Positions 1 through 56,153 of a stretch of DNA of 64,000 nucleotides are shown piece after piece; the stretch's first letter is position 1; every line of letters starts with the position of its first letter. Source of the stretch: Deltaproteobacteria bacterium (GTDB lineage: Bacteria > Desulfobacterota > Syntrophia > Syntrophales > JACQWR01); the NCBI GenBank assembly GCA_016209105.1, contig JACQWR010000025.1, forward strand, positions 41,314 through 105,313. The letters run 5' to 3'. Position numbers and translations under genes: made by a program. The notes beneath the pieces were generated by a model. It was not told the DNA's origin. It ran no database searches and was given only the letters and a program-made list of their open reading frames with translations.

Positions 1-1067
1 ACAAGGTGATGCGTTTTCCCGACCGGGAGCGGCACCCGGTCGTTCTTGAATTCGAGGGGCTGGAAACGGAAGAGGTGTATGCCAAAGGACTGGGGAACAG
101 CCTGCCCCCGGAACTCCAGGAATCAATCGTTCACAGCGTGCCCGGCCTGGGACAGGCGGAGATCATGCGCGCGGCCTACGCCATAGAATATGATTTCGTC
201 CAGCCGACGCAACTGCGGCGGACCTTGGAGACAAAATCCGTCGCCGGCCTCTATCTTGCCGGCCAGATCAACGGCACATCGGGCTACGAAGAAGCGGCCG
301 CCCAGGGAATCCTGGCCGGCATCAATGCCGCTGCGGCCGTCCAGGGGAGGGAGCCGTTTCTCTTGGATCGCGCCGACGCTTACCTGGGCGTCATGGTTGA
401 TGACCTCGTAACCCGCGGCGTAGACGAGCCGTACCGCATGTTTACCTCCCGCGCCGAGTATCGCCTGATCTTGAGGGAGGACAATGCGGGGTTCCGCCTC
501 ATGGGAAAGGGCCATAAACTGGGGCTCGTTTCCCGCGAACAGTATGAGCGCATGGAGGAACAGGCGCGCCTGATCGGGGAGGGAATCAGGAAACTGTCTT
601 CCGTGAAGGTTTATCCTGTTCCGGAGGCGAACAGCAAACTCGCGGAAATGGGAACCGCTCCGATCAAGAATCCGGCGACTCTGTACCAGCTCTTGAAGCG
701 CAGCGGCATCAGGCATGATGATCTGAAGGTTTTCGCGGGCTGGGAGGCCGTCCCGGACCGCTCCGTCAGGAGACAGATCGAGATCGAGGCCAAGTACGAA
801 GGGTATATCCAGCGTCAGCGGGACGCCGTCCGCAAAATGAAGGAACTGGAGGGAAAGAAAATTCCCCCGGGGATGGATTATGCCGCCATCCCGAGCCTTT
901 CCAATGAACTGAAGACAAAGCTCATCCGTGTGGAGCCGGCCACCATCGGGCAGGCGGAACGGATACCGGGTATGACCCAGGCCGCAATTACGGCCCTCCT
1001 TATCATGATGAAGAAGATGGAAATGGAGGCGGCCGCCTGTAGGAGAAACGGCGTAACGGGCCCGTAG
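1..1067 (+). CDS. mnmG: tRNA uridine 5-carboxymethylaminomethyl modification enzyme MnmG/GidA, C-terminal part (5' end outside window)
   Basis: The ORF is open from the window edge to the stop at 1067. It contains the motifs AIEYDFV, GLYLAGQINGTSGYEEAAAQG and GQAERIPGMT typical of the MnmG C-terminal half. Confidence 0.9.
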   Translation, partial: KVMRFPDRERHPVVLEFEGLETEEVYAKGLGNSLPPELQESIVHSVPGLGQAEIMRAAYAIEYDFVQPTQLRRTLETKSVAGLYLAGQINGTSGYEEAAAQGILAGINAAAAVQGREPFLLDRADAYLGVMVDDLVTRGVDEPYRMFTSRAEYRLILREDNAGFRLMGKGHKLGLVSREQYERMEEQARLIGEGIRKLSSVKVYPVPEANSKLAEMGTAPIKNPATLYQLLKRSGIRHDDLKVFAGWEAVPDRSVRRQIEIEAKYEGYIQRQRDAVRKMKELEGKKIPPGMDYAAIPSLSNELKTKLIRVEPATIGQAERIPGMTQAAITALLIMMKKMEMEAAACRRNGVTGP

Positions 1068-1124
1068 CGGACCCGTTACGCCTCATCCAAAATCGTCAAG
1101 TTCTTTTTCCCGTATACACCCGGT

Positions 1125-7949: not shown

Positions 7950-9176
7950 ATGGGTAATCCGGTCAATACGGGTGATACGGCTTGGATACTGGTCTGCTGT
8001 TCTTTGGTATTGCTGATGACGCCGGCGCTCGGACTCTTCTATGGGGGCATGGTCCGCCGGAAGAATGTTCTTTCCACGCTGACCATGAGCTACACGTTCA
8101 TGGCCCTGATCGGGGTGCAGTGGGTGCTCTACGGATATTCCCTGGCCTTCGGCAAGGATATCCAGGGGATCATCGGCGGCCTGAACTTTGTGGGATTCAA
8201 CGACGTCGGTGCCGTCCCGAACGGCGACTACGCCAAGACAATCCCCCACGGGCTCTTTGCGGCTTTTCAGATGATGTTTGCGGTCATCACGCCGGCCCTG
8301 ATTACCGGCGCCTTCGTGGAGCGTGTGAAATTCAAGAGTTTCCTCCTGTTCAGTCTGCTCTGGGCCACGTTGGTCTACGATCCCCTGTGCCACTGGGTTT
8401 GGGGAGCAGGGGGGTGGCTGAAAAATCTCGGCACACTCGATTTTGCCGGCGGGACGGTGGTGCACATCGCGGCCGGTTTTTCCGCTCTTGCCTTTGCCTT
8501 GGTCATCGGGCCGCGCAAGGGCTTCGGCAAGTCTCCCCTGGAACCCCATAGCATCCCCCTGACGGTTCTGGGCGCCGGGTTATTGTGGGTTGGTTGGTTC
8601 GGATTTAATGCCGGCAGTGCGCTGGCGGCAAACGGTGTCGCCGTAAATGCACTCCTGACCACCAACACCTCGGCGGCGACGGCGGGACTGGTCTGGATGC
8701 TGCTGTCATGGCTGGATGGCCGGCCGAGCACGTTGGGAATCGCGACCGGCATGGTCGTGGGGCTTGCGGCGGTGACACCGGCGTCGGGCTACGTCACACC
8801 CCTGGCGTCCATGGTTATCGGAGCCGTGGCTGCTCCTCTTTCCTATTATGCCATGCGCTTTCGTGATCGTCGCGGGCTGGATGAATCCCTGGATGTGTGG
8901 GCCTGCCATGGCGTGGCCAGCTGCTGGGGTATGCTCGCGACCGGTCTGTTTGCCACCGTGGCCGTGAACAGCGACGGCGGCAATGGCCTCTTTTTCGGAA
9001 ATCCCGCACAGCTCAGCATTCAGCTTCTGGCCATACTGGTCACCGTGGTGTTCAGTTTCGGGGTTACCTATGTACTGGCCAAATTGCTTCATGAGAGCAT
9101 CGGACTCAGGGTAAGCGCCATGGAGGAAGAAGTAGGCCTGGATATCAGCTCCCACGGGGAGCGGTCATACTCGTAA
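7950..9176 (+). CDS. amt: Ammonium transporter (Amt family), copy 1
   Basis: NTGDTAWILV, LGLFYGGMVRRKN, DFAGGTVVHI and WFGFNAGSA signatures. 408 aa. Confidence 0.92.
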   Translation: MGNPVNTGDTAWILVCCSLVLLMTPALGLFYGGMVRRKNVLSTLTMSYTFMALIGVQWVLYGYSLAFGKDIQGIIGGLNFVGFNDVGAVPNGDYAKTIPHGLFAAFQMMFAVITPALITGAFVERVKFKSFLLFSLLWATLVYDPLCHWVWGAGGWLKNLGTLDFAGGTVVHIAAGFSALAFALVIGPRKGFGKSPLEPHSIPLTVLGAGLLWVGWFGFNAGSALAANGVAVNALLTTNTSAATAGLVWMLLSWLDGRPSTLGIATGMVVGLAAVTPASGYVTPLASMVIGAVAAPLSYYAMRFRDRRGLDESLDVWACHGVASCWGMLATGLFATVAVNSDGGNGLFFGNPAQLSIQLLAILVTVVFSFGVTYVLAKLLHESIGLRVSAMEEEVGLDISSHGERSYS

Positions 9177-12015: not shown

Positions 12016-13347
12016 ATGTTTTCCTGTAAAACAAAAGCCGACGTCCTGAAAGTGGTGAAAGAACAGAAGGTAAGCTTTGTCCAGTTCTGGTTTACCGACG
12101 TGCTGGGGGTGCAGAAAATCTTCAGCATCACCCCTTCGGAGCTGGAAGAGGGTATGGGGGAGGGTATGGGGTTTGACGGTTCCTCCATCCAGGGGTTTTG
12201 CCGGATCGAGGAGAGCGACATGATTGCCATGCCCGATCCCGCCACCTTTCAACTTCTGCCCTACCGGCCTTCGGAGCGGCCGGTGGCCCGCATGATCTGC
12301 GATATCCAGAATCCGGACGGCACCCCCTATGAGGGAGACCCGCGCTACGTCCTGAAACGCATGCTGAAAAAGACTGCTAAAATGGGGTATACCTACTATG
12401 TGGGGCCCGAACTGGAATTTTTCTATTTTGCCAATGACAGAACGCCGGAGATCATTGACCGGGGCGGCTACTTCGACGGTCTGCCCGTGGACCGGGCCAC
12501 CGATCTTCGCCGCGAGACGATCTTTGCCCTCCAGGACATGGGCATCCGCGTGGAATATTCGCACCACGAGGTGGCCCCCAGCCAGCATGAGATAGACCTC
12601 CGCTATGACGAGGCCCTGAAGATGGCCGACCAGGTGATGACCTACCGGACCCTGGTAAAGGAGGTCGCCCGGCAGAACGGCGTGTACGCCACCTTCATGC
12701 CCAAGCCCATCTTCGGCGAAAACGGCAGCGGCATGCATACCCACCAGTCCCTCTTCAAAGGGACGAAGAATGCCTTTTTCGACGGCAGTGACAAGTACCA
12801 CCTGTCGAAGACCGCCAAGCACTATATCGCCGGGCTGATGACGCACGCGCCGGAGTTTACGGCGATCTGCAACCAGTGGGTCAATTCCTACAAGCGGCTG
12901 GTGCCCGGTTACGAAGCCCCGGTCTATGTCTCCTGGGCGCGCCGCAACCGCTCCGCCATGATCCGCGTTCCCATGTACAAACCGGGCAAGGAGAAGGCAA
13001 CGCGCATTGAATACCGCTCCCCCGATCCCGCCTGCAACCCCTACCTGGCTTTTGCCGTGATGCTGGCGGCGGGCCTGCAGGGAATGGAAAAGAAGTACGT
13101 CCTGCCGGAACCCGTGGAGGAGGATATCTTTGAAATGGATGAGAAGGCCCGCGCCAAGGCGGGGATAACCTCGCTGCCGGGCAGCCTCTATGAGGCGTTG
13201 CAGCTTGTATCCAAGAGCAAGCTGGTTCGGGAAACGCTGGGTGAGCATATTTTCAATAAATTTGTGGAAAATAAGAAGGTCGAATGGGATCGCTTCCGTA
13301 CCCATGTGAGCCAGTTCGAGATAGATCGCTATCTGCCCATGTTGTAA
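12016..13347 (+). CDS. glnA: Glutamine synthetase, type I
   Basis: ATG at 12016 with RBS aaaggag. FVQFWFTDVLG, GFDGSSI, GPELEFF, NGSGMHTHQS and SWARRNRSAMIRVP motifs. Confidence 0.93.
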   Translation: MFSCKTKADVLKVVKEQKVSFVQFWFTDVLGVQKIFSITPSELEEGMGEGMGFDGSSIQGFCRIEESDMIAMPDPATFQLLPYRPSERPVARMICDIQNPDGTPYEGDPRYVLKRMLKKTAKMGYTYYVGPELEFFYFANDRTPEIIDRGGYFDGLPVDRATDLRRETIFALQDMGIRVEYSHHEVAPSQHEIDLRYDEALKMADQVMTYRTLVKEVARQNGVYATFMPKPIFGENGSGMHTHQSLFKGTKNAFFDGSDKYHLSKTAKHYIAGLMTHAPEFTAICNQWVNSYKRLVPGYEAPVYVSWARRNRSAMIRVPMYKPGKEKATRIEYRSPDPACNPYLAFAVMLAAGLQGMEKKYVLPEPVEEDIFEMDEKARAKAGITSLPGSLYEALQLVSKSKLVRETLGEHIFNKFVENKKVEWDRFRTHVSQFEIDRYLPML

Positions 13348-13377
13348 GTGAAGTGTTTTTCCCTTTCCGGAGAGGAT

Positions 13378-13485
13378 GTGAAGCTCCCCGCCCACAGGGC
13401 GGGGCTTCCCGGTAAGGAGTTTCAGTTATCATTGCGCCCCTTAACCCCGCCTGGAAGGTGGGGCTCGCGGGTGCGCCCCCGGTCA
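13378..13485 (+). repeat. Structured intergenic repeat, family C, copy C1
   Basis: About 108 bp. It matches the reverse complement of 48157-48264 along its length. It has two GC hairpins, ccccgccc-acag-gggcgggg and ccccgcc-tggaa-ggtgggg. Confidence 0.7.
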
Positions 13486-13498
13486 TAGGAGGTCATAC

Positions 13499-14650
13499 AT
13501 GTCGCTTTTGCGGCAGCAACAGCCGGCCCTGTTGGTACTGGAAGACGGAAGCGTGTACCATGGGTACGCCTTTGCCGGATCGGGGGAAGTGCTGGGTGAG
13601 GTAGTTTTCAATACCGGCATGACGGGGTATCAGGAAGTTATTACCGACCCGTCTTACAAGGGGCAGATAGTTGCCATGACCTATCCTCTGGTGGGCAGTT
13701 ACGGCATCAATCCGGAAGATAGGGAATCTGCCGGCGTCCACCTGGAAGGCTTTATCGTGAAAGAGTATCAGACCCGGCCCAGCAACTGGCGGAGCCGGCA
13801 AACCCTGAAGACCTTTCTTGAAGACCATGGCAGGATCGGCATCGAGGGGATTGATACCCGGGCTCTGACCCGCCGCATACGGCTTACCGGCGCCATGCGG
13901 GGCATCATTTCCACGGAGACCGCGGACACTGATCTTCTCCTTACGCGCGTGCGCGCTTACCCCGGCCTCGTGGGCCGGGATCTGGTTAAGACGGTTACCT
14001 GCAAAAAACCCTGCCGTTGGCGAGACGGTGCGCCCCGGCAGATCAGAACGATGGGGATGAGATCCCCGCGGGGGAAATTACGGGCCGTCGTTCTCGATTG
14101 CGGCGTCAAGTACAATATCCTGCGCCGGCTGGAGGAGCGCGGTTGCGAGATTATCATCCTGCCCGCCACCGCAACGGCGGAGGATATTTTGTCTTGCGGA
14201 GCCCACGGGCTGCTGCTTTCAAACGGGCCCGGCGATCCGGCGGCCCTTTCCTACATTGTGGACGCGGTCCGCAATGTCCTGGGCAAAATCCCCATATTCG
14301 GCATTTGCCTGGGACATCAGATTCTGGGCCAGGCCCTGGGAGGCAGGACCCTCAAGCTCAAATTCGGCCACCACGGCATTAATCAGCCGACAAAAGACGA
14401 CCGGACGAAACGCATCGAGATCACCTCGCAGAACCATGGCTTTGTCGTGTTGCCCGAATCACTGCCCGCGGACATCGAAGCAACCCATGAAAACCTCAAT
14501 GATCGCACTTCAGAAGGGATGATCTCCCCGGCGCTCAAGGCCTTTAGCGTCCAGTATCATCCGGAAGCAGCGCCCGGCCCTCATGATGCGACCTACCTGT
14601 TTGATGAATTTGTCGGACTCATGGAAAAGGAAAGGGAAAAATCACGATGA
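13499..14650 (+). CDS. carA: Carbamoyl-phosphate synthase small (glutaminase) subunit
   Basis: LVLEDGSVYHGYAFG, FNTGMTGYQE, GICLGHQ and the HGFVV/YHPEA triad region. Confidence 0.93.
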   Translation: MSLLRQQQPALLVLEDGSVYHGYAFAGSGEVLGEVVFNTGMTGYQEVITDPSYKGQIVAMTYPLVGSYGINPEDRESAGVHLEGFIVKEYQTRPSNWRSRQTLKTFLEDHGRIGIEGIDTRALTRRIRLTGAMRGIISTETADTDLLLTRVRAYPGLVGRDLVKTVTCKKPCRWRDGAPRQIRTMGMRSPRGKLRAVVLDCGVKYNILRRLEERGCEIIILPATATAEDILSCGAHGLLLSNGPGDPAALSYIVDAVRNVLGKIPIFGICLGHQILGQALGGRTLKLKFGHHGINQPTKDDRTKRIEITSQNHGFVVLPESLPADIEATHENLNDRTSEGMISPALKAFSVQYHPEAAPGPHDATYLFDEFVGLMEKEREKSR

Positions 14651-16182: not shown

Positions 16183-16309
16183 CCGGCTCCGGAAAAAGGG
16201 CCATATGCGGCGTTGCGCTTCGTCATGAGTCACCGGCGTACGCAAAAGTACGCCTCATTCCTCATAACTCGCGCGCCTTGCCTCTGGCGCTTTTTGCGAA
16301 GCCGCCTGG
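16183..16309 (+). repeat. Stop-codon-abutting inverted-repeat element, family A, diverged copy A4
   Basis: It shares the central hairpin ggcgtac-gcaaaa-gtacgcc and the flanking ccttgc...tttttgcgaagccgcctgg arm with 30596-30721. It starts 7 nt after the guaA stop. Confidence 0.55.
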
Positions 16310-24651: not shown

Positions 24652-25884
24652 CTATTCCAGTACCGTGTAGGCCGATTCGTTGTGCTGGGTCAGGTCCAGA
24701 CCGATGAGTTCCTCTTTTTTCCCGACCCGCATGCCGATGAGCTGATCAACGATTTTGTATATGATGGAGGCCGTGATAAGGGCATAGAGGACTGCCACGA
24801 TAACCAGGGCCAACTGGACGAAAAACAGGTGAACGCCCCCGAAGAGGAGCCCGTCCGCACCGGCGGCATTTATGGCCTTTTCAGCGAAGAGCCCTGTAGC
24901 GATGGTTCCCCATATCCCGCCGACGCCATGGACGCCGAACACGTCGAGGGCGTCGTCGTACTTGAAGTGCGCCTTAATTTTTGTCAGAGCCAGGAAGCAA
25001 AAGATGCTTGCCAAGGCGCCGATGAAGATGGCGTTTAAGGGGCTGACAAAACCGCAGGCCGGCGTGATGGCCACGAGTCCCGCCACAACCCCCGTGACGG
25101 TGCCGAGCAACGTGGGAGCGCCGTGCTGTCGCCACTCGATGATTGCCCAGGTCAAACCGGCCGCGGCCGCGGAGGTATTCGTGGTGACGAAGGCATTGGC
25201 GGCAAGTGAACCGGCGGCAAGAGCGCTGCCCGCATTAAACCCAAACCAGCCGAACCAGAGAAGGCCCGCGCCTAGGGTGGTCCAAGACATGTTGTGGGGG
25301 CGGAAAGCTTGCTGTTCAAATCCAATCCGGCGTCCCAGCATGACGGCGATGACGAGGGCCGAGACGCCGGAACTGACGTGAACGACGATGCCGCCGGCAA
25401 AGTCGAGAGCGCCCAGGTTCCGCAGCCATCCCCCCATCCCCCATACCCAATGGGCCAGGGGGTCGTAGACGAACGTCGCCCAGAGGATCGTCATGGCAAG
25501 AAAGGCGGAGAATTTTATCCTTTCCGCAAAGGCGCCGATCATGAGCGCCGGGGTGATGATGGCGAACATGGCCTGAAAGATCATAAACACCTGGTGGGGG
25601 ATGGTGGCCGCATAGTCCGCATTGGGCTGACCACCAACGCCCCTCAAGCCCGCCCAGGCGAGGCTTCCAATGATGCCGTTTCCTATGTCGGGCCCGAAGG
25701 CGAGCGAGTAGCCGTAGAGCACCCACTGAAGGCTGATGACGCACATGATGATGAAACACTGCATGATGATAGACAGGACATTTTTCCTCCGCGCCAGCCC
25801 ACCGTAAAAAAAGGCGAGTCCCACGGTCATCAGCAGAACCAACGTGCTGGAAACTAAAACCCATGCCGTATCTCCTGTATTCAT
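24652..25884 (-). CDS. amt: Ammonium transporter (Amt family), copy 2
   Basis: MNTGDTAWVLV, FFYGGLARRKN, DFAGGIVVHV and WFGFNAGSA. It is a paralogue of 7950-9176. Confidence 0.92.
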   Translation of the reverse strand: MNTGDTAWVLVSSTLVLLMTVGLAFFYGGLARRKNVLSIIMQCFIIMCVISLQWVLYGYSLAFGPDIGNGIIGSLAWAGLRGVGGQPNADYAATIPHQVFMIFQAMFAIITPALMIGAFAERIKFSAFLAMTILWATFVYDPLAHWVWGMGGWLRNLGALDFAGGIVVHVSSGVSALVIAVMLGRRIGFEQQAFRPHNMSWTTLGAGLLWFGWFGFNAGSALAAGSLAANAFVTTNTSAAAAGLTWAIIEWRQHGAPTLLGTVTGVVAGLVAITPACGFVSPLNAIFIGALASIFCFLALTKIKAHFKYDDALDVFGVHGVGGIWGTIATGLFAEKAINAAGADGLLFGGVHLFFVQLALVIVAVLYALITASIIYKIVDQLIGMRVGKKEELIGLDLTQHNESAYTVLE

Positions 25885-30595: not shown

Positions 30596-30721
30596 CAGGC
30601 TGTTGAAAAATGCCTATCTGCGGCGTTTCCCTCGTCCTCCGCCATTCGACGTACGGAAAAGTACGCCATCATGGCTCAGGACTTCGGGAGCCTTGCATCT
30701 GGACATTTTTTACCAGCCTGT
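30596..30721 (+). repeat. Stop-codon-abutting inverted-repeat element, family A, copy A1
   Basis: Terminal inverted repeats caggctgttgaaaaatgcc / ggacattttttaccagcctg and a central hairpin gacgtac-ggaaaa-gtacgcc. It starts 3 nt after the ychF stop. Confidence 0.75.
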
Positions 30722-36707: not shown

Positions 36708-36830
36708 AATGCGGCACGCTCTCCCCGCTGCGTGCTGCAGGAAACGCGAGCGAATGTTAAAGATACCGTTCCTTGAGAATCAACGATTTTCCGCAAGGTA
36801 CTGCGGAGGGATTCCATTTATTGAAATGGC
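36708..36830 (+). repeat. Intergenic repeat, family B, copy B1
   Basis: gcgagcgaatgttaaagataccgttccttgagaatcaacgattttccgcaagg...ttattgaaatgg aligns with 41962-42042. Confidence 0.6.
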
Positions 36831-39136: not shown

Positions 39137-39260
39137 CAGGCTGTTCAAAAATGCTCAGATGCAAGGCCCCCGAAATACTTCGCCGTGAGGCGTACTGATA
39201 CGTACGCCGAATGGCGAAGTATGAGGGAAACGCAGCAGATGGGCATTTTTCAACAGCCTG
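39137..39260 (-). repeat. Stop-codon-abutting inverted-repeat element, family A, copy A2 (reverse orientation)
   Basis: The reverse complement aligns end to end with 30596-30721. It directly abuts the stop codon (39261-39263) of the minus-strand gene upstream of it. Confidence 0.75.
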
Positions 39261-41906: not shown

Positions 41907-41924
41907 GTCCGGCATTTCAATTCG

Positions 41925-42042
41925 GCAGCGAGCGCATTCCCCGCGGCATGCCGCGGGGTAAGTGAGCGAATGTTTAACGATATGATTCCTTGAGAATCGG
42001 AGATTTTTTGCAGCGTGCTTAAGGAACGCTTCAATTGATGCG
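41925..42042 (+). repeat. Intergenic repeat, family B, copy B2
   Basis: The agcgagcgcattccccgcgg module is followed by gagcgaatgtttaacgatatgattccttgagaatcggagattttttgcag...cttcaattg. Confidence 0.6.
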
Positions 42043-45667: not shown

Positions 45668-45788
45668 AGTGAATGTCATTTTATTGAAGTTCTCCTTAGC
45701 GCAGACCCCGGAGAATCTTCGATTCTTCATTTTATCATTCGCTTGCTTACCCCAAAGCCAAGCCGCGGGGAATGCGCTCGCTACCGGA
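45668..45788 (-). repeat. Intergenic repeat, family B, copy B3 (reverse orientation)
   Basis: The reverse complement reads agcgagcgcattccccgcgg...aagcgaatgataaaatgaagaatcgaagattctccgg...cttcaataaaatg. Confidence 0.6.
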
Positions 45789-46166
45789 TTCAATAAGGCG
45801 GAGAGATCTTGCCTGATGAAGCGAAGCATTGCAGAGGGATTTGACTCATACACCATAAGAGTGCAGCTACACAGCCGAAGCGGAACGCACGTATTTTCCA
45901 GAGCTGATATATGGATGCATCTGCTGCAGCCACATATGGGGAAATGACTACATCCCAGCTACATCCTATAACGGTAAAGGGAGTGCTTGTCAATCATTTT
46001 TTAATCCGGCTTTCCGGGATGAAGATCTGTTCCCGATGAGAAACTTGCAAACAATAATTGCTTGAAAAAGCGTTGTATTTCATATATAGGACGAAAAAGC
46101 ATTTGCTTGTGTACCGGTGTTTTCGCAGAGAAGAATTTAAAAAAATGCAAAAGGAGGAAAACAGGC

Positions 46167-47376: not shown

Positions 47377-47955
47377 TCAATCCGGAACGCGGTTCGTGAA
47401 GAGCCGTTCAAAGAATCTCTGCTTTTTCTTCGGGAAGTACACGGAACCGTCGTCGTAATCCACGATCAGCTTCCCATCCAGGTGATCCAGTTCGTGCTGA
47501 ACCACGCGGGCGAGGTAATCCGTGTAGCGCTTGCTTATCTTGCAGCCGTTTGCATCCAGCGCCCGGACTTTTATTTCCGGGAACCTGCTCACTTCCACCT
47601 GAATGTCGGGACACGAAAGACAGCCTTCCGACATGGTGACCTTTTCCCCCCGGCGTTGAGTTATTCTCGGATTGATGAGCACGTCGTAATCACTTTCGCT
47701 TTTCGTCCAGACGCTTTTATCATCAAAGCCCTTGTTGCGGAAAACGACGATGCGGTGACTGATGCCGATTTGAGGCGCCGCGAGACCGGAGGCATCATCC
47801 CGTGCGAGAAAGGCATCCACCAGGGTCCGGATATGCTTTTTCCCCTCCGGAGAAAGCGGTGCCGGAAGTTCCCGGCACGGGGTCCGCAATATGCGGACGT
47901 CTTCCTCGTTGATTTCTTCATCGCGCCACAGCGTTAGGACTTTTTTATCAGACAT
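47377..47955 (-). CDS. def: Peptide deformylase
   Basis: GLAAPQIG, EGCLS and HELDHLDG motifs. Confidence 0.93.
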   Translation of the reverse strand: MSDKKVLTLWRDEEINEEDVRILRTPCRELPAPLSPEGKKHIRTLVDAFLARDDASGLAAPQIGISHRIVVFRNKGFDDKSVWTKSESDYDVLINPRITQRRGEKVTMSEGCLSCPDIQVEVSRFPEIKVRALDANGCKISKRYTDYLARVVQHELDHLDGKLIVDYDDGSVYFPKKKQRFFERLFTNRVPD

Positions 47956-48156
47956 GGATTCATGAACCTGCCAGTTATTTAACGTTCCCTCTATAGCACT
48001 GCCCCGCTCTTATTTCAAGAGACGGCGGTCTCTAAAAAAGCGGTTCTCAAAACGCTGCGGGGAATGCGCTCGTTGCCGGGTTCGCGAACGGGCTTGCTAA
48101 ATCAGCCCATGTTTGTTAGGGTTCGCCCCCGGAAAAGACTTGGCAGCCTGCAAAAA

Positions 48157-48264
48157 TGACCGGGGGTGCTCCTGCGAGTCCCGCCTTAAAGGCGGGGCTA
48201 AGGGGCGCAATGAAAATCAATAGTCCTTACCGGGAAGCCCCGCCCTCCGGGCGGGAAGCTTCAC
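48157..48264 (-). repeat. Structured intergenic repeat, family C, copy C2 (reverse orientation)
   Basis: It is the reverse complement of 13378-13485. It is flanked by family-A-like arms (cagcctgcaaaaatga at the left, cactttttcagcaacctg at the right). Confidence 0.7.
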
Positions 48265-48300
48265 TTTTTCAGCAACCTGTTGCTCCACCGGAGGGAAGAT

Positions 48301-49557
48301 ATGTCCTTAATTGATACCCTCATTACTCGATCAGCCCGGCAGATGTTCGGCAGAGCCATGAGGTTTGACGGCAAAAACCCGGCGCGGATACCTGCGGGCT
48401 CCAGCGCGAAACCGCGCCTCCTCTATCTGCATGTCCCCTTTTGCGAACGGCTGTGTCCCTACTGCTCTTTCAACCGGGTCGTATTTGACGCCGGCCTGTG
48501 CCGCGAGTATTTCCAGGCTCTCCGGAAAGAAATAGTCCTCTACAAGAATGAAGGCCATGAATTCAGCGGCATTTATGTGGGCGGCGGCACCCCCACGATT
48601 CTCATCAATGAACTGCAGGAAACCCTGTCCCTGGCCAGGCAGTGCTTCGGGATACGGGAAATCTCCGTGGAAACCAACCCCAACCACCTTACCGAAGAGA
48701 ACCTGGAGATTTTAAAGTCGAGCGGCGTGAGCCGGCTTTCCGTGGGGATACAGAGCTTCGACGGCGGTCTACTGAAGGATATGGACCGCTATGACAAATA
48801 CGGGAGCGGAGCGGTCATTGCCGCGCAGTTGGAACGGGCGCGCGGTTACTTCGACACCCTCAATGCGGACATGATCTTCAACTTCCCCTCCCAGACCATG
48901 GCGACGCTAAACAATGACCTGGATATCCTGACCGGGATGGGCATGGATCAGATTACCTACTACCCCCTGATGGTCTCCGATTCAACGAGGGAAAAGGTTG
49001 TGAAGACGCTGGGCCGGGTGGATTACGGCAAGGAAAAAAAACTGTACCGACGCATTGTGGAGCGGCTTGCCCCCTCCTACCGTTTTTCCTCGGCATGGTG
49101 TTTCTCCCGCAAGTCCGCCCCGATTGACGAGTACATCGTGGACTACGATGAGTATGCGGGACTGGGCAGCGGGGCGATAGGGTATATTAACGGCATCTGT
49201 TATGCGAACACCTTTGACATTCCCGAATATATCGAACGGGCGGGCAGGGGGGAGATGCCGCTCTTTGCCGCCCGCGAGTTTTCCTTTCGGGACAAGGTGC
49301 GCTATGATTTTCTGATGAAACTCTTCGGGATGAAGCTCGATCTGGAAGCCATGAAGGAAAAGTACGGTTCAGAGCTGATGGGGGTGCTCTGGCCCGATAT
49401 CCTCGTCTTTAGCCTGATACGGGCGATCCGTTACTGGCCGCCGCACTTGCATCTGACGGAAAAAGGACGCTATGTCTGGGTGATCCTGATGAGGGAATTT
49501 TTCATCGCCGTGAACAACCTGCGGGACTACTGCCGCGCTCGCATCCCCTCCGCTTAG
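48301..49557 (+). CDS. Radical SAM protein, HemN/HemW-like coproporphyrinogen III oxidase family
   Basis: LYLHVPFCERLCPYCSFN carries the CxxxCxxC motif, with GGGTPT downstream. ATG at 48301 with RBS ggaggga. Confidence 0.85.
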   Translation: MSLIDTLITRSARQMFGRAMRFDGKNPARIPAGSSAKPRLLYLHVPFCERLCPYCSFNRVVFDAGLCREYFQALRKEIVLYKNEGHEFSGIYVGGGTPTILINELQETLSLARQCFGIREISVETNPNHLTEENLEILKSSGVSRLSVGIQSFDGGLLKDMDRYDKYGSGAVIAAQLERARGYFDTLNADMIFNFPSQTMATLNNDLDILTGMGMDQITYYPLMVSDSTREKVVKTLGRVDYGKEKKLYRRIVERLAPSYRFSSAWCFSRKSAPIDEYIVDYDEYAGLGSGAIGYINGICYANTFDIPEYIERAGRGEMPLFAAREFSFRDKVRYDFLMKLFGMKLDLEAMKEKYGSELMGVLWPDILVFSLIRAIRYWPPHLHLTEKGRYVWVILMREFFIAVNNLRDYCRARIPSA

Positions 49558-49558
49558 T

Positions 49559-49788
49559 CAGGCTGCTGAAAAACGCCCGTCTGCTGCGTTTCCCTCATAC
49601 TTTGCCATTCGACGTACGTATCAGTACGCCTCATGGTCGAAGAGACCGGGGGCGCATCACCGAATCCCGCCATAAGGAGGGATGAGGTGGCGCAACAGCA
49701 GACGATTACTTCCCTGCCGGGAATCCACGCTTGGTAAGCGTGGATTCAATTCGGGGGCCTTGCAAGTTCGCTCCGCTTTCCGAAGCCG
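49559..49788 (+). repeat. Family A element copy A3 carrying a nested family C copy (C3, about 49644-49758, reverse orientation)
   Basis: The left arm caggctgctgaaaaacgcc and the hairpin gacgtac-gtatca-gtacgcc are intact. The core is interrupted after ccggggg by about 100 bp homologous to family C, then resumes cgggggccttgca. It starts 2 nt after the hemN-like stop. Confidence 0.65.
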
Positions 49789-50362: not shown

Positions 50363-50980
50363 TTATGCTTGGATTGGTATTTTGGCCGGGATGTTTTCCT
50401 TTTTGATTCGAATTTCTACCACGGGAGGGTTAACATCAAAGTGTGTTGCTACCTCATTGGATATATACGACCAGACATCGTCCGGCATTTTTGCAAATTT
50501 TTTAAACGTTTCCTGATACTTTGCGACAACAGCGTTGCATACTTTTTCCAGTTGCACCGTCGGCACCAGTAGCTGACCCGCAAACCATTCTCCCTGGGTC
50601 TCAAACCAACTGATGTCTTCCTGCAACAGGGAAAGGCGCCATTTTACATATTCATCCGGTGTCCGGAATGGGAGGTCATCGTAACATGTTTTATGCAAAA
50701 CGTAATGTCCCAGTTCGTGAGCGAGGGTGTACCGGTATTTTTCATTAAACTGGCTGTATTGCGTTTCATCCACGTAGATCGTGGAAATGTCCCGGCTGAG
50801 AAATCCGTTGAGGCCGTGATCCTTGTATAGCCGGGGAAATGGAAAGATATCGAGCCCTAAATTCAATTCTATAATTTCTTCAACGGGTATGGGTATCTCA
50901 AATGACGGGTGGTGCTGATTAAGAAATGCCTGTACTCTGCTACCGATGTCTGCATAGCTGAGATAGGGAATATTAAACAT
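50363..50980 (-). CDS. ImmA/IrrE-family zinc metallopeptidase
   Basis: The HEXXH motif reads AHELGHYVLH. An ATGA overlap links it to the upstream XRE gene. Confidence 0.85.
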   Translation of the reverse strand: MFNIPYLSYADIGSRVQAFLNQHHPSFEIPIPVEEIIELNLGLDIFPFPRLYKDHGLNGFLSRDISTIYVDETQYSQFNEKYRYTLAHELGHYVLHKTCYDDLPFRTPDEYVKWRLSLLQEDISWFETQGEWFAGQLLVPTVQLEKVCNAVVAKYQETFKKFAKMPDDVWSYISNEVATHFDVNPPVVEIRIKKENIPAKIPIQA

Positions 50981-51360
50981 CAGCGCAATTCTTTCTTAAT
51001 AGCTTTGATAAGTTGTTGCAGGTCTTCTTCATTAAGGGTTTTATCTCTTACCGTCCTGAAGAGAACAGGGAGCGCGTTCATGACTTCTTCGTTGGACACG
51101 ATATCGGCCGGCAACTTTCCCGCGCTCGTGATTGCCAAATCGCAGAACGCCAGCCAGTCCTCCGTTCCTTCTTCAATCCCCAAGGCCAAAGCATACTTTA
51201 GGAGAAGTTCCTTCGAATGCGGCGGAGGAAACAAACCTCTCTCGATCTTGCTGATGTTTCCCGGGTCAAGCGCGTTTACACGACAAAACTCTCGTAGCGT
51301 AAGGCCTTTTGCTATTCTCTTTTCTTTGAAAAAGTTTCCAAAGGTCTTGGCAAAAACCAT
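50980..51360 (-). CDS. XRE-family helix-turn-helix transcriptional regulator
   Basis: FKEKRIAKGLTLREFCRVNALDPGNISKIERG is the HTH_3 pattern. ATG at 51360 with RBS gaaggggg. Confidence 0.85.
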   Translation of the reverse strand: MVFAKTFGNFFKEKRIAKGLTLREFCRVNALDPGNISKIERGLFPPPHSKELLLKYALALGIEEGTEDWLAFCDLAITSAGKLPADIVSNEEVMNALPVLFRTVRDKTLNEEDLQQLIKAIKKELR

Positions 51361-51513
51361 AATTTCACCCCCTTCCTGTTGTAAAAAATAATACAACAGG
51401 AGTCATCTGTCAATAGAAAATAACGGATGGATACTTGTCCCTTTTCATCATTATTTATCGGGAAATGTGTATCGGTTACCGGAGCGCGATCAGGATAGGG
51501 ATGTAATGGGGTT

Positions 51514-51861
51514 TCATTTTGTAATTACCAGGAAAGTCATTCCGCGCTTCCGGCACCAGTTCCGGGCGGCTTCATGCTTGCGTAGCGTGTCGGGATTGGT
51601 CAGATACTGCCCGCCCTTCACCTCGTGCAGTTCCACAGCGCCGTCCATCCTTTCGACAAGAAAATCGGGATGATAGCCACGCACATTCCCTGCCTCCGTG
51701 ACGTACTGGATAGCAATGCCATGATTTTTCGTCCATTTGGCAACGGTCTTGTCCTTCTCCAGGCGCTTCATGTATTGCCATTCCCAGGACGAGTCGTAAC
51801 GCTCAACGGAATATGCGCTTTTAAGGGGGTTTTCAAAATCGCCGCGCTCACTGGTCGGCAT
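51514..51861 (-). CDS. Small stand-alone PD-(D/E)xK nuclease-fold protein (TnsA-N-terminal-like)
   Basis: YHPDFLVERMDGAVELHEVKG provides PD...ExK. It overlaps the helicase gene end by 14 nt. Confidence 0.6.
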   Translation of the reverse strand: MPTSERGDFENPLKSAYSVERYDSSWEWQYMKRLEKDKTVAKWTKNHGIAIQYVTEAGNVRGYHPDFLVERMDGAVELHEVKGGQYLTNPDTLRKHEAARNWCRKRGMTFLVITK

Positions 51862-53857
51862 GTCCTGCCTCCTGCTTATAGTTTACAATGCTGGCAACCA
51901 ATCCGGGACGGTTCTTGAAGTTGGCAGCCAACCGGTGGCGACAGTTGAGGGCGTGTCGCAATTCCAAAACGCTCGCCGTGCCGACGGTTTTTTCGCCCAG
52001 CATCTTCTTGCGGACATGATCCATGAGCACGCCGTAAAGATAACCGAGTTCATGGGAGCCTATGCCTTCCTCCGCCAGGAGGTCGGCGGCTACATCTCTG
52101 ACACTGGTCTTCAAAAGCTCGGCAAGCTGGATGGGGTCGTCAATTTCACTCAGAGGCTTCCTAACGCCATAGAGCGCCGGGGCTTCACGAATCTCCCGGA
52201 AACCGGATCCGTCCAGGGTCTGCCCCACTATGCCGCTGATCTCAACGCGCGATATTTCCGTCTCCACGCCATAATCAAACTCGTCCAATATCTTTTGCCA
52301 CTTAGGATAATCGCTCGTCTCAATAGTGATATTGGCCAAATCATCGTCAAAATCGGCCTTTTCTTCTTCCAGCGGTTCGGGAAGAGGGATAAGCAGATCG
52401 GGATTGACGACGAATTGCGGCTTACGTTTGGGCGGCAGGTCTTCGTCTCCAAACAGGGTCGCCTGTCCCACGTCCTTGCGTACTTTCGCGCCGACGATAT
52501 CCCACAGCCAGTCGTGTTTGAGCTTTTCATGGTCCACGATGGCGCATATTTCCTGAAGATCCCTGTCGCGCACGTTCAGCCGGAGGCCGCGCCCCACAAC
52601 CTGCTGGCCATAAACCCGGCTGGAAAATTTGCGCAGCAGAAGGATGACCGAAACGGCAGGGACGTCCCAACCTTCGCGAAGCATGAGGACGCTGACGACG
52701 GCTTCATAAGGACTGCCGGACTTTCCCAGCTTGCGGGCGGCCTCCCGGTCTTTTTCGTCCGATTGTTCGGTGACCAGCAGGGTGCGGAGCTTGAATTGCT
52801 CTTCCAGCATGTCCCTGGCCTGCTGGGCGTCTCTGATGGTGATGGCGACGACAAAAAGGATGGGGTTATAGGCTCCTTTCGCCAAGGCGTCGGCGCGGCG
52901 TTTCTGTTCGGACAGCCGATCCAGGGCGATGCGTATCTGCTTGTGCATGGGGTCCGAGTCGGTGACCCACTGGGTTGACGACAGGCCCTTTTCGATCCGT
53001 TCAAACTCCTCGTCCATCTCGTCCACGGTGCGTTTTTCGCCCGTTTCCGGGTTGGTATAGGTGAGCTCGACGGAAGAAAGCTGGGGCTGATAAACAACGA
53101 TATTCTTGATGATCGGCGGTACTTCCGCCTGCGCGTCTGTGATGCTGTAATCGAAAATCATTTTCGTGTCCGGCACCTGTCCATCGGCGCGGTCAGGGGT
53201 GGCGGTCGTATCCAGCCGGAATTGGGAAATTTGTCTGAGGGTGAAGAGGGTGCTGTCATACTCCGCCGCCGGGGTGTTGTGCGCTTCATCGTTGAAGACG
53301 GCAATCCTCTCGTCCGCGTTCATCAGGATGGCCAGGTTGCGCTTGCCGCTGATATTGGCCTGGTACAACTGATGGATGTTGCCAAGGATGACGCCGTGAT
53401 CCCGGATGCCCTGCGGCCCTTCGCCGGGCTGCATAACGTGCAGCCCCAGGGTGTTGGCGTAATGCTCGGTGCCGGGCGGAAAGAAGCCGAAGTCGCGGAA
53501 TACCCTGGCGTCCGTAAAATCGTCTTCCAGCCGGTCGCGCACGATGGTGTTGGGGCAGAGGAGAAGGAACTTGTGAATATCGTGGCAGACCTTCAGCCAC
53601 GCCACCACCGCGCCGATAATGGCCGTCTTGCCGCCGCCCGTGACGATATTGAGCAGGAGGTCCTTCCACTGGAGCAGTTCATAGGCATAGACCGTGCGCA
53701 TGAAGGCCTCTTCCTGGTGCCGCCACAGACGGCGGGGCGCATCGGGGCGGGTGATGTGCGTCAGGAAGTCGCGGGTGAGCGGATTCACGTCCGGGAACGC
53801 CTTGGATGCCCACCAGGCACGGAAGTCCTGCTCATATGGCGCAAAAGAGTAATACAT
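51848..53857 (-). CDS. SF2 DEAH helicase, Type III restriction Res-subunit-like, without recognisable nuclease domain
   Basis: Motif I TGGGKT, motif II FNDEAHN, motif III TATP, and motif VI QQVVGRGLR. No PD-(D/E)xK motif is visible in the ~220-aa C-terminal region. Confidence 0.8.
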   Translation of the reverse strand: MYYSFAPYEQDFRAWWASKAFPDVNPLTRDFLTHITRPDAPRRLWRHQEEAFMRTVYAYELLQWKDLLLNIVTGGGKTAIIGAVVAWLKVCHDIHKFLLLCPNTIVRDRLEDDFTDARVFRDFGFFPPGTEHYANTLGLHVMQPGEGPQGIRDHGVILGNIHQLYQANISGKRNLAILMNADERIAVFNDEAHNTPAAEYDSTLFTLRQISQFRLDTTATPDRADGQVPDTKMIFDYSITDAQAEVPPIIKNIVVYQPQLSSVELTYTNPETGEKRTVDEMDEEFERIEKGLSSTQWVTDSDPMHKQIRIALDRLSEQKRRADALAKGAYNPILFVVAITIRDAQQARDMLEEQFKLRTLLVTEQSDEKDREAARKLGKSGSPYEAVVSVLMLREGWDVPAVSVILLLRKFSSRVYGQQVVGRGLRLNVRDRDLQEICAIVDHEKLKHDWLWDIVGAKVRKDVGQATLFGDEDLPPKRKPQFVVNPDLLIPLPEPLEEEKADFDDDLANITIETSDYPKWQKILDEFDYGVETEISRVEISGIVGQTLDGSGFREIREAPALYGVRKPLSEIDDPIQLAELLKTSVRDVAADLLAEEGIGSHELGYLYGVLMDHVRKKMLGEKTVGTASVLELRHALNCRHRLAANFKNRPGLVASIVNYKQEAGHADQ

Positions 53858-55503
53858 TATGTGACCTCGATGGTCTGCACGACGGTGCGTTCTCCGCCCT
53901 GGTCGTCCTGCACCGAGCAGGCAATCGTGTATTCACCGGCTTTGGGGAACGCATATTGGGCCGCCAACAGCGGCCTGCCCGTCTTTTTATCCCGTAAAAA
54001 CGAATAGCCCTGCGTGGACGTGAAACGTCCCGGCTTGTGCTTAAAATCCCACTGGACGTTGGCAATCATGCCGTCCTTGTTCAAGCTGACGGACTCCGAA
54101 ACGTCGAGCTCGTAAGTCAGGGCTTTGATGCGGCGCACCGCCACCCGCACTTCCGGCGGCTGGATAAAGCTGAGGAGGGGGGCATAGTCGCGGCTTTTGA
54201 TGACCACATGCTCGCGGAACTGGTCGTCTTCAAGACGGATCAGGTTAAGGCGCACAAAGTCTATGCGCCGGTTTTCGCGGGCGGCCAGGATTTCCGAGGC
54301 CTTGCGCGCGTCCGGGCCGAAGTTCCAGCCGAGCATGACGCCGTGATTGGCCCGGCGTTCTTCGTAAACGGCCCTGGCAAAAAGGGCAACGTCATCTCTG
54401 CCGATACGCGACCTCCGTGACGGCGCGCCGACGTAGAGCGGGACGCCGTAGCGCATGCCGTGGATGGCTTCCGTAACGCTCTCCGGCCGGCCGCCGAAGG
54501 CCTTGACGACAAACTCGCGGAACTGCTCCGCGGTGTATTGCTCCAGTTTGGGCGCTTCGTAGATCCCCCAATGCTCGATCGTAAAATCGGGAACGGGGAA
54601 CAGCATGCCGATTTTTTCTTCCACTATCTTGGCGATGCGATCGGCGGTAATGGCGACGGCAATCCGGGATTGGTCAGAGGCGACCCAGCGGCGGTTGAGG
54701 CGCTGGGCAACGGTGGTTGTGGTGCCCCCGCCGGAAAAGAAGTCGGCAACCACGTCGCCCTCGTTAGAGGAAGCCTTGATGACACGTTCAAGTAGTGGTT
54801 CTGGCTTTTGAGTCGGATAGCCGATACGCTCAAGACGATCGGAATTGTTAATCTTATCTATATCCCACACATCATCCAGAGGGCTTCCGTAGGCCATTGC
54901 TTCTTCAAGGTATCTTCTTACCCTTTGACCACCTCCGGCATCAGAAAGCACATACTCTTGTCCCTGTTCGTCTACATGCACCTTCTGTTTCCGTTTTTTA
55001 ACGTATTCGTCCTTATTCTCCCAAGGACGTTTGGGGTAGTTAAAGAGGTTCTTTTCTTGTTTTGCATAGAAAAGAAGGGAATCGTGCCTCCGTTCTAAGT
55101 GATTATCAAGTTGCTTGTTCCATCCTGAATAATGCCAGATCACTTCATTTCGGAAGTTACCGGCCCCAAAAATCTTGTCCATCTCCACCTTGACATAGTG
55201 GGCGGCGTGCCAGTCGAGATGCACATAAATGGAGCCGGTGGATTTAAGCAGGCGTTTCATCTCCCAGAGCCGCGCGTTGAGCCAGACCAGGTAGCCGGGC
55301 ATGCCGACTTCCCAGATATCGGAGAAGGAGCGCACCTCGTTCTTGTCGCCGAAGATGACGTTGTAGTTGCGGCCGGAAAAGAAGGGCGGGTCAATATAAA
55401 TCAGATCAATGCTCTCGCTCGGCAACTGGCGCAGATATGGAGGTTGTCGCCGAAAAACAGACGGTTGGCGCCCGTGGGGAAGAGTTCTTTCAGTTTGCGG
55501 CAT
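53857..55503 (-). CDS. N6-adenine/N4-cytosine DNA methyltransferase (beta-class, Mod-like) with C-terminal PKD-like domain; 5' part displaced by a frameshift
   Basis: Motif IV DLIYIDPPFF comes before motif I DFFSGGGTT. The C-terminus WDFKHKPG...YAFPKAGEYTIACSVQDDQGGERTVVQTIEV resembles a PKD/Ig fold. The TAATG junction is shared with the helicase gene. Confidence 0.8.
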   Translation of the reverse strand: MPQTERTLPHGRQPSVFRRQPPYLRQLPSESIDLIYIDPPFFSGRNYNVIFGDKNEVRSFSDIWEVGMPGYLVWLNARLWEMKRLLKSTGSIYVHLDWHAAHYVKVEMDKIFGAGNFRNEVIWHYSGWNKQLDNHLERRHDSLLFYAKQEKNLFNYPKRPWENKDEYVKKRKQKVHVDEQGQEYVLSDAGGGQRVRRYLEEAMAYGSPLDDVWDIDKINNSDRLERIGYPTQKPEPLLERVIKASSNEGDVVADFFSGGGTTTTVAQRLNRRWVASDQSRIAVAITADRIAKIVEEKIGMLFPVPDFTIEHWGIYEAPKLEQYTAEQFREFVVKAFGGRPESVTEAIHGMRYGVPLYVGAPSRRSRIGRDDVALFARAVYEERRANHGVMLGWNFGPDARKASEILAARENRRIDFVRLNLIRLEDDQFREHVVIKSRDYAPLLSFIQPPEVRVAVRRIKALTYELDVSESVSLNKDGMIANVQWDFKHKPGRFTSTQGYSFLRDKKTGRPLLAAQYAFPKAGEYTIACSVQDDQGGERTVVQTIEVT

Positions 55504-55793
55504 TGCTCGTTCTCCGCCAGGAACCGGTCATTATGCCCGAATTCCACACGCTGGACTTCCTGAAAAGGCAGGCGGATCGTGGGGTAGGCGTGCTGAAACT
55601 TGGTAACTTTTACCTCATGCCGCCGCGTCTCCACTTCCCAGCCGAGCGGAGCTTCGTCAACCGGAACCGCCCCGAATCGCGTCGGCAGTTGGAAGTGTTC
55701 TTTCTGTTCGGGGATGCTGTCTTCACCGGGCGCAGGCGGCTCGATGAAGGAGATTTCCAGTTCTTCTTCTGAGGTCGTTTTTTTGCGGGGCAT
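55401..55793 (-). pseudogene. Displaced N-terminal segment of the methyltransferase gene (different frame)
   Basis: It ends ...NRLFFGDNLHI, while the other frame continues YLRQLPSESIDLIYIDPPF. Together they form the usual xxGDNLxxLxxLPxxSIDLIYxDPPF block, which implies a 1-nt deletion near 55431-55440. Confidence 0.65.
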
Positions 55794-55934
55794 AAGCCAG
55801 TCTCTTGAAGTGGCTGGGCACAATACAACCATTACCAGTTGTCATTTTGCATATTTACTAAAGTCCGTCAACCGAATACTTCGGGAATATATCTGCCATC
55901 TCAGGCACCCTCTTTTGCCCCTCCTGTAGCCGTC

Positions 55935-55962
55935 TTGACAAGCCGGATTTTGTGACTATATT
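55935..55962 (+). promoter_or_regulatory. Sigma-70-type promoter TTGACA-16-TATATT upstream of the hsp20 cluster
   Basis: cTTGACAagccggattttgtgacTATATT. It would give a leader of about 185 nt before the ATG at 56154. Confidence 0.5.
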
Positions 55963-56153
55963 AACAGTAAAATCAGCATATAGCTAACAATATTAACAAG
56001 TTGCTTGTAAAATCTTCATCCGGTTGCGAGGGTGAATCTCTCCGGCGGAGGAAGAGAAACTCTTGGGAGAGGGGAAGCTTCGGATCTCCCAAGCCCCCTT
56101 TTCCAGAGGGGGAAATTAACGGGAGGAAAGAAAGGGAAAGGAGGTTGAGAACC

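Follow-up and report, generated by a model that had tools for sequence, protein, structure and literature searches.

At positions 49644 to 49758 of the 64,000-nucleotide stretch of DNA analysed here (the window, 64 kb in all), a hairpin-bearing repeat, family C, lies inside a copy of a second, palindromic repeat, family A. A sequence-only reading of this stretch had noticed that both arms of one hairpin of the nested copy differ from those of its relatives while pairing is kept, and had taken this as a sign of selection on RNA or DNA secondary structure. It had also proposed that the two families are modules of one composite element. The locus thus raises the question of what kind of object family C is: a structured RNA, a signal kept by the host, or a DNA repeat that spreads.

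Copies and anatomy of family C

The covariance model of family C, for which 38 relatives served as input, was run over the 64-kb window with filters off and returned exactly three copies of the family, the next match reaching 15 bits (E 0.11). C1 (13378-13485, plus strand; model span 13370-13490) is a full solo copy scoring 115 bits. C2 (48157-48264, minus strand; model span 48152-48272) is a full copy scoring 105 bits, and C3 (49644-49749, minus strand; model span 49638-49757) is a diverged copy at 78 bits, nested in the central loop of the family A copy A3. C1 and C2, which had been called near-identical, share only 85.5% identity. C3 is 63-65% identical to either of them, and its description as a diverged third copy inside A3 is borne out by this value and by its location in the A3 loop. 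The insertion point of C3 was set by alignment with family A copies that carry no C. Family C proper ends at about 49749 and positions 49750-49764 belong to A3, so that the span originally drawn, 49644-49758, contains a real copy and overruns its end.

C1 occupies most of the 151-nt spacer between glnA (end at 13347) and carA (start at 13499), and its 3′ end lies 4 nt from the AGGAGG ribosome-binding site of carA. C2 lies between the divergent def (47377-47955, minus strand) and HemN-like radical SAM gene (48301-49557, plus strand), and C3 between the radical SAM gene and the convergent ndk. The surroundings of these copies hold other features. A motif of about 30 nt, GCYGCGGGGAATGCGCTCGYTRCCGGRTTC, recurs intergenically at 48054-48083, at 45762-45791 and, on the minus strand, at 41916-41950 and 36717-36761; the orthologous contig L082 conserves the one that lies upstream of def, and this copy may therefore be a regulatory site rather than a mobile repeat. 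Adjacent to ndk, a cluster at 50363-56000, drawn from the gene table of L001, encodes an N6/N4 DNA methyltransferase, a ResIII helicase/nuclease, a protein with a TnsA-like endonuclease domain and an M78 peptidase/XRE-type pair, and is likely a restriction-modification or defence islet.

On the strand of C1, the unit of about 105 nt begins with (G/T)TGAAGC and a 12-bp, GC-rich hairpin 1 (hp1), followed on the 3′ side by the conserved single-stranded motif CTTCCCGGYAAGGAA and a variable, T-rich linker of 13-19 nt. Its 3′ half consists of ATTGCGCCCC, TTRA, hairpin 2 (hp2), CTTGCGGG, 1-4 nt and the end motif GCGCCCCCGGTC(A). A bulged outer helix (P2) surrounds hp2, the stem of which is usually CCCCGCC/GGCGGGG, the same sequence as the hp1 stem. 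In the structure model, a 4-bp CCGG/CCGG long-range helix may close this 3′ domain.

In C1, hp1 lies at 13380-13408 on the plus strand (GAAG[CT]CCCCGCCC aca GGGCGGGGCTTC) and is part of the minimum-energy fold both as RNA and as DNA, while P2 and hp2 span 13434-13476 on the same strand, with P2 GCGCCCC / GGG-T-GCGC placed around CCCCGCC tggaa GGTGGGG. The corresponding parts of C3, on the minus strand, are hp1 at 49721-49747 (GAATCCACGCTT acc AAGCGTGGATTC), with 12 perfect pairs, and P2 with hp2 at 49652-49693 (GCGCCACC..ATCCCTCC ttat GGCGGGAT..GGTG-AT-GCGC). Relative to C1, three C:G pairs of hp1 have become A:T or T:A in C3 with all 12 pairs intact, which confirms the initial observation of changes on both arms with pairing kept. 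Asymmetric features persist in most copies, namely the 2-nt CT bulge of hp1, a T or AT bulge, and the TTAA/CTTGC internal loop of P2. An IS608-guide-like pairing of the TTGA/TTAA before hp2 with the terminal TCAA was counted in 7/9 versus 3/7 copies, a comparison that is confounded by subfamily. A reverse-strand small ORF (MTGGAPASP...) was also considered and rejected, its ATG being present in C1 and C2 only, and the indels in linker and loop not being multiples of three.

Nesting of family C with family A

Family A is a long, MITE-like palindrome of about 125 nt with terminal inverted repeats CAGGCTGYTSAAAAA (CAGGCTG...), and is common throughout the genomes that carry family C. Complete copies without C lie at 39137-39260 (plus strand), which provided the empty site for comparison with the C3 insertion, and at 30596-30720 (minus strand); family A sequence was also found at 16183-16254 of the window and in the contigs L042, L049 and L069. 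At some copies of family A, TTA or TTAG may be duplicated.

The arm of A3 on the side of the radical SAM gene (49559-49643, plus strand) begins with the terminal inverted repeat CAGGCTGCTGAAAAA. Its other arm is reduced to a remnant at 49750-49764 (plus strand), TTCGGGGGCCTTGCA, which is the conserved core of family A. About 52 nt of this second arm (tatcaggttcgctgaaaaagttattttttcaggctgctcaaaaatgtccgga, including the terminal inverted repeat) are missing in the window and present in L001-L004, Logan and JGI contigs of the same locus. The missing segment reflects either variation between strains or collapse of the MAG assembly at the repeat.

The nested copy had been described as bracketed by a direct repeat, CGGGGGC. 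The second of these heptamers stands where it was placed (49752-49758), and the first lies one base away from the position given for it, at 49647-49653. The left heptamer is the reverse complement of the conserved family C end GCGCCCCCGGTC and occurs in C1 as well (13475-13481), and the right one lies within the family A core TTCGGGGGCCTTGCA and is found also in a copy of A without C (39166-39172). Because each heptamer is native to its own element, the pair is neither a target duplication nor an insertion footprint, and at most family C landed beside sequence resembling its own end. CGGGGGC is rarer than chance in the window, with 12 occurrences against 24 expected.

The family-A-like flanks attributed to C2 were found as inverted arms, the left at 48144-48156 (plus strand; CAGCCTGCAAAAA) being an inverted repeat of the right at 48265-48279 (minus strand; TTTTTCAGCAACCTG, which the minus strand reads as CAGGTTGCTGAAAAA). 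The right arm has at most two mismatches to the terminal inverted repeat of family A. Moreover, an empty palindrome made of terminal inverted repeats only, GCTGAAAAA-gtta-TTTTTTCAGGC, adjoins A3 in L004. Given these flanks and this empty form, C2 is best read as family C in the loop of a mini-palindrome.

Most distinct copies of family C carry no A-like arms, and copies of family A without C are common both in the window and in other metagenomes, which indicates that A and C are separate families that nest. C3 and a copy in L040 occupy the same point of the family A central loop, the empty form of which reads GCAAGGCCCCCGAA-ATA-CTTCGCC. The composite of A and C3 thus recurs in L040, at a different locus of another metagenome and with shared subfamily-specific features, and it has probably moved as a unit since, using the terminal inverted repeats of A. 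The proposal of a single composite element is therefore upheld in part: this composite does recur, and C2 and its arms are absent together from L082, but C is usually solo and A exists without C, so that the two are separate modules that are sometimes nested.

Distribution and mobility

Beyond the window, a search pattern that avoids the stems (TTCCCGG...TTGCGCC...CCCCCGGTC) retrieved six true copies of family C from 185,579 species genomes, all of them from three MAGs of uncultured bacteria, which carry the labels Deltaproteobacteria, Syntrophaceae and Proteobacteria. With a slightly stricter pattern, 35 of 35 matches in metagenome contigs were true copies. The search patterns prescribe TTCCCGG, TTGCGCC and CCCCGGTC, so that the constancy of these blocks is in part an ascertainment effect; the copies obtained independently of the patterns, by a model search of the fetched loci, amount to two strong ones only (L037:1320-1442 and L037:3506-3627) and five weaker ones. 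In total there are 41 distinct copies, with flanks that are unrelated beyond GAAGC...CCCGGTC. Their density reaches three copies in 7 kb on contig L037, and five distinct loci of one metagenome carry the same hp1 variant, CCCCGCTC/GAGCGGGG.

Protein matches show that the relatives of the Deltaproteobacteria MAG that holds the window are Syntrophales, and family C is so far confined to uncultured members of this order. Plasmid, phage and IMG/VR collections gave no matches. Literature searches by organism and by sequence string found nothing relevant to the family, which is apparently undescribed and constitutes a new family in the MITE/REP/RPE-like class of small structured interspersed repeats.

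The model search of the fetched loci also brought out a sister family, D, at L041:1139-1250 (minus strand), L070:3371-3483 (plus strand) and L070:~975-1100 (plus strand). It reads TTGAAKCTCCCCGCAAC aag GTTGCGGGGAATC..GTTAAGGAA..hairpin..GCTGTTCAA and has the architecture of C, a hairpin, YAAGGAA, a linker and a second hairpin, with TTGAA...TTCAA ends and a different sequence. Only about 55-60% of positions are identical between D and C, and YAAGGAA is common to both.

Orthologous loci with and without the element were compared. The contig L082, which carries a radical SAM ortholog of 90% amino acid identity next to the same def neighbour, has neither C2 nor its two arms, and the spacer measures 255 nt there versus 345 nt in the window. 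In L083 (82% amino acid identity) the radical SAM gene and ndk are separated by 25 nt, where the window has A3 and C3. L019 and L037 share an orthologous locus with alaS, a small membrane ORF and a Na-Ca-exchanger gene, the flanks of which are about 85% identical; the copy at L037:882-1003 abuts the alaS stop codon, and L019 has no copy there. With slashes at the junctions, the empty site reads ATAT/C/TTAGCGG (L019) and the filled one ATAT/GAAGC...CCGG/TCAGCGG (L037). At a second site, after ...TGATTGT (...CCATATRTGATTGT), both contigs are filled in opposite orientations (L019:5857-5977, plus strand; L037:1320-1442, minus strand), the outcome of either a hot spot hit twice or an inversion in place. 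The genomes with empty sites are 10-18% diverged at the protein level, and the ends of the element are accordingly known no more closely than to about 3 nt. When empty sites were sought in the same strain by exact-protein look-ups, only the same filled alleles or repeat-broken contigs came back, and short-read contigs of that strain end inside C1 and at A3.

Other palindromic repeats are also entered. Seven copies (in L038, L043, L049, L060, L063, L067 and L069) sit in another palindromic shell, which has terminal repeats GGAAATCGGATCCCGGAAGCGCGCATTGGA and a CGAAAAAT motif that abuts the 5′ end of C, and a family D element lies inside the linker of one family C copy. At L063:2158-2352, about 195 nt containing a copy of C and shell remnants are read in frame within the ORF of an HrpA-type DEAH helicase. 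They add about 60 residues with no stop codon between the HA2 and OB-fold domains, where HrpA of Escherichia coli has 4 residues (between 616 and 621). Insertions of family C are thus found between genes, once in frame within a gene, and in the loops of other palindromic repeats, the last of these accounting for the position of C3 inside A3. Copies that are 5′-truncated or internally deleted were found in L045, L055 and L064.

These copies, dispersed at non-homologous loci with sharp common boundaries and present or absent at orthologous sites, show the hallmarks of a mobile repeat. The reading that we favour, and consider reasonably probable, is that family C is a non-autonomous interspersed DNA repeat of about 105 nt, spread by a trans-acting enzyme that is likely of the single-strand type. 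Only copies with intact hairpins and end motifs would be recognised and copied by such an enzyme, so that selection would act on the ability of the element to spread and would give rise to subfamilies with compensated stem changes and constant unpaired motifs.

The ends of the element bear on the type of enzyme. The terminal inverted repeat of C is TGA...TCA only, whereas a MITE of the DDE type would have one of at least about 10 nt. The flanks show no direct repeat that could be a target-site duplication and no consistent repeat following a TA or TNA target rule; the left flank shows no more than A/T-richness and a T at position -1 in 29 of 37 copies. A single-strand mechanism of the HUH type (IS200/IS605- or RAYT-like) would be the most likely, over a DDE transposase, given the lack of long terminal inverted repeats and of target duplication, the like-sequence subterminal hairpins on one strand, the fixed bulges, the variable middle and the insertions into palindrome loops. 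It is from this anatomy only that the mechanism is deduced, as no autonomous element was found, Pfam searches detected no transposase in the 34 ORFs flanking or overlapping copies, and no separated half-sites were found in the 550 kb of fetched loci.

The placement of the copies could also suggest a REP/BIME-like intergenic signal kept by the host, acting as an mRNA 3′-end stabiliser, an attenuator, or a nucleoid-protein or gyrase site. Nearly all copies are in short spacers between genes, often right at gene ends (C1, L037:882-1003, C3), and their density of up to three in 7 kb would suit such a role. We find this explanation unlikely, in view of the absence of the element at orthologous loci and its occurrence in either orientation at the same site. 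By crude ORF calls, family C runs in the direction of its upstream gene in 16 cases and against it in 18, and the corresponding numbers for the downstream gene are 19 and 13. Its orientation relative to genes is about random, and there is no U-tract for termination. The neighbouring genes have no function in common, since the 29 flanking ORFs searched with Pfam are unrelated housekeeping genes (alaS, gltX, acyl-CoA dehydrogenase, transporters, kinases).

Stem covariation, the RNA reading and known repeat classes

To follow the stems across copies, the alignment was guided by a hand-drawn structure and realigned with the covariance model, given that RNAalifold on a plain MAFFT alignment misaligned the stems and gave a poor consensus. 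In the model-guided alignment of family C, 87.8% of cells are paired and double changes occur in 20 of 33 pairs (59 cells). Column shuffles gave 8.1 pairs and 15.5 cells with double changes, and none of 500 came up to the real alignment; with the partners displaced by 1-3 columns, 6-15 double-change cells and 42-53% pairing were left. At least seven different hp1 stems occur across C and D, all of them paired. Few events, passed on within subfamilies, account for many of the double-change cells. The covariation suspected from the copies in the window is thus strong in the larger set, and the data support that the hairpins of family C are conserved as structure and not as sequence.

Compensated changes could also arise mechanically, if intrastrand template switching or slippage in quasi-palindromic DNA copied one arm from the other, and they would then have no selective meaning. 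The changes do sit in perfect local DNA palindromes, folding is equally good on either strand, a few percent of cells (A-C and G-T) are single-arm intermediates, and many double-change cells trace to few events inherited by subfamilies. Template switching should, however, erase the asymmetric bulges and the P2 internal loop, which persist in most copies. Moreover, the stems vary while the adjacent unpaired motifs are constant, and the hp1 stems, at least seven of them, are all paired across both families. We regard this explanation as very improbable.

Selection on secondary structure had been proposed for either RNA or DNA, and the conserved hairpins substantiate this for structure as such; the further step to a structured RNA is unsupported. 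The Rfam search suggested at the outset returned no family: release 15 gave no matches at gathering thresholds over the whole window, and at E ≤ 10 there was only noise, of 6-23 bits versus thresholds of 31-100. Searches for tRNA and tmRNA genes found none. G-U pairs number 36 versus 61 A-C mismatches (about 19 versus 29 when four dubious pairs are left out), and they are no commoner than A-C mismatches on either strand. The two strands of family C fold about equally well, the reverse strands as well or better. C1 has its wobble pair (G-U) on the C strand, while the mismatches of C2 are wobbles on the opposite strand only, where C2 folds better. No sigma-70-type promoter and no intrinsic terminator (a GC-rich stem followed by a U tract) was found in or beside the copies. 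The lone terminator-like consensus match, a low-GC one in the C1 linker (13401-13423), was judged unconvincing. Upstream of the copies, the only conserved feature is A-richness.

Two observations speak against reading family C as a mobile repeat: for a repeat in decay, its unpaired motifs show unusually high conservation between genomes, and the possible long-range closing helix implies folding as a single strand, which would fit an RNA as well. An alternative is that C, and D with it, is a multicopy structured noncoding RNA, for example a small regulatory RNA, a ribozyme that cleaves itself, or a mobile-element RNA of the guide or bridge type. The unpaired motifs would then be functional sites, and the copies would owe their spread to an RNA gene that is carried on a mobile unit or is itself one. 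Variable, covarying stems beside invariant unpaired CUUCCCGGYAAGGAA, AUUGCGCCCC and GCGCCCCCGGUC have the usual look of functional RNAs, the architecture including YAAGGAA is kept in D despite its low identity to C, and the predicted CCGG/CCGG closing helix is long-range. Set against this are the lack of any Rfam match, the lack of an excess of G-U pairs over A-C mismatches on either strand, the opposite strand preferences of C1 and C2, the lack of promoter, terminator and conserved upstream sequence, the random orientation to genes, the truncated copies and the copy in frame within the helicase ORF. The covariation is genuine but does not amount to evidence for an RNA gene, and we hold a noncoding RNA to be improbable, to the same degree as the host signal. 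These two explanations and the mechanical one each fit fewer observations than does a mobile repeat.

A mobile repeat of this kind has several known counterparts. Rickettsia palindromic elements (RPE) are hairpin-forming repeats of 100-150 nt that lie between genes or in frame within them and have no associated transposase. Family C resembles them as a small, scattered hairpin repeat that is mostly intergenic and once in frame (the HrpA gene of L063), and it differs in having no sequence similarity to them, a host among the Syntrophales and one coding insertion only. The REPs of Proteobacteria are single palindromes of 20-40 nt with a GTAG-type head, and the RAYT gene is flanked by REPs. With REP, BIME and REPIN sequences family C shares GC-rich intergenic hairpins, a short conserved 5′ motif, high density, mosaics with other modules, and the lack of target duplication and of long terminal inverted repeats. 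In contrast to REPs, C is 105 nt long, with two hairpins in direct order, conserved unpaired blocks and the head GTGAAGC; no RAYT gene was found in the window or in the loci examined.

The PATEs derived from IS200/IS605 likewise have like-sequence subterminal hairpins at both ends on one strand, no terminal inverted repeats or target duplication, and a variable middle where the coding region would be deleted. Unlike them, family C occurs in both orientations at one site and has only A-richness in place of a conserved 4-5-nt target at its 5′ side, and no TnpA/TnpB partner with C ends was found. Like C, classical MITEs (Correia/NEMIS, ERIC and Nezha among them) are small structured sequences without coding function that are dispersed, nest in one another and break short-read assemblies. 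Family A fits the MITE type well, being a 125-nt palindrome with CAGGCTG... terminal inverted repeats, whereas C has only TGA/TCA and no detectable target duplication.

Two further candidates were rejected. Integron attC sites carry R″/R′ core sites (RYYYAAC...GTTRRRY) and follow each cassette in one orientation; these core sites are absent from C, the genes between copies are syntenic housekeeping genes, and orientation differs between species. A CRISPR-like reading was ruled out on motif and context. Finally, C and D together could represent a new class of folded single-strand element, either a loop-homing HUH or recombinase substrate or a catalytic or guide RNA on a mobile unit, in which the invariant unpaired motifs and the closing helix would be recognised as single-stranded DNA or as RNA. 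We consider such a class quite unlikely.

Read as a mobile repeat, family C is of an ordinary kind, from a lineage that has been little studied. It explains why the assemblies of these Syntrophales genomes break at particular intergenic sites, and its covariance model and boundaries allow the masking or annotation of a repeat that would otherwise pass for a structured RNA. The simplest explanation of its compensatory stem evolution is selection on the spread of the element, not on an RNA function of the host. Should its machinery prove to be a single-strand transposase with hairpin loops as targets, the nesting of C in A would be a useful natural model. The window also holds a pair of inverted repeats 17 kb apart, 8098-8498 and 25345-25748, with segments of 141 and 55 nt that are 72-78% complementary, and these look like paralogous coding sequence rather than a repeat element.
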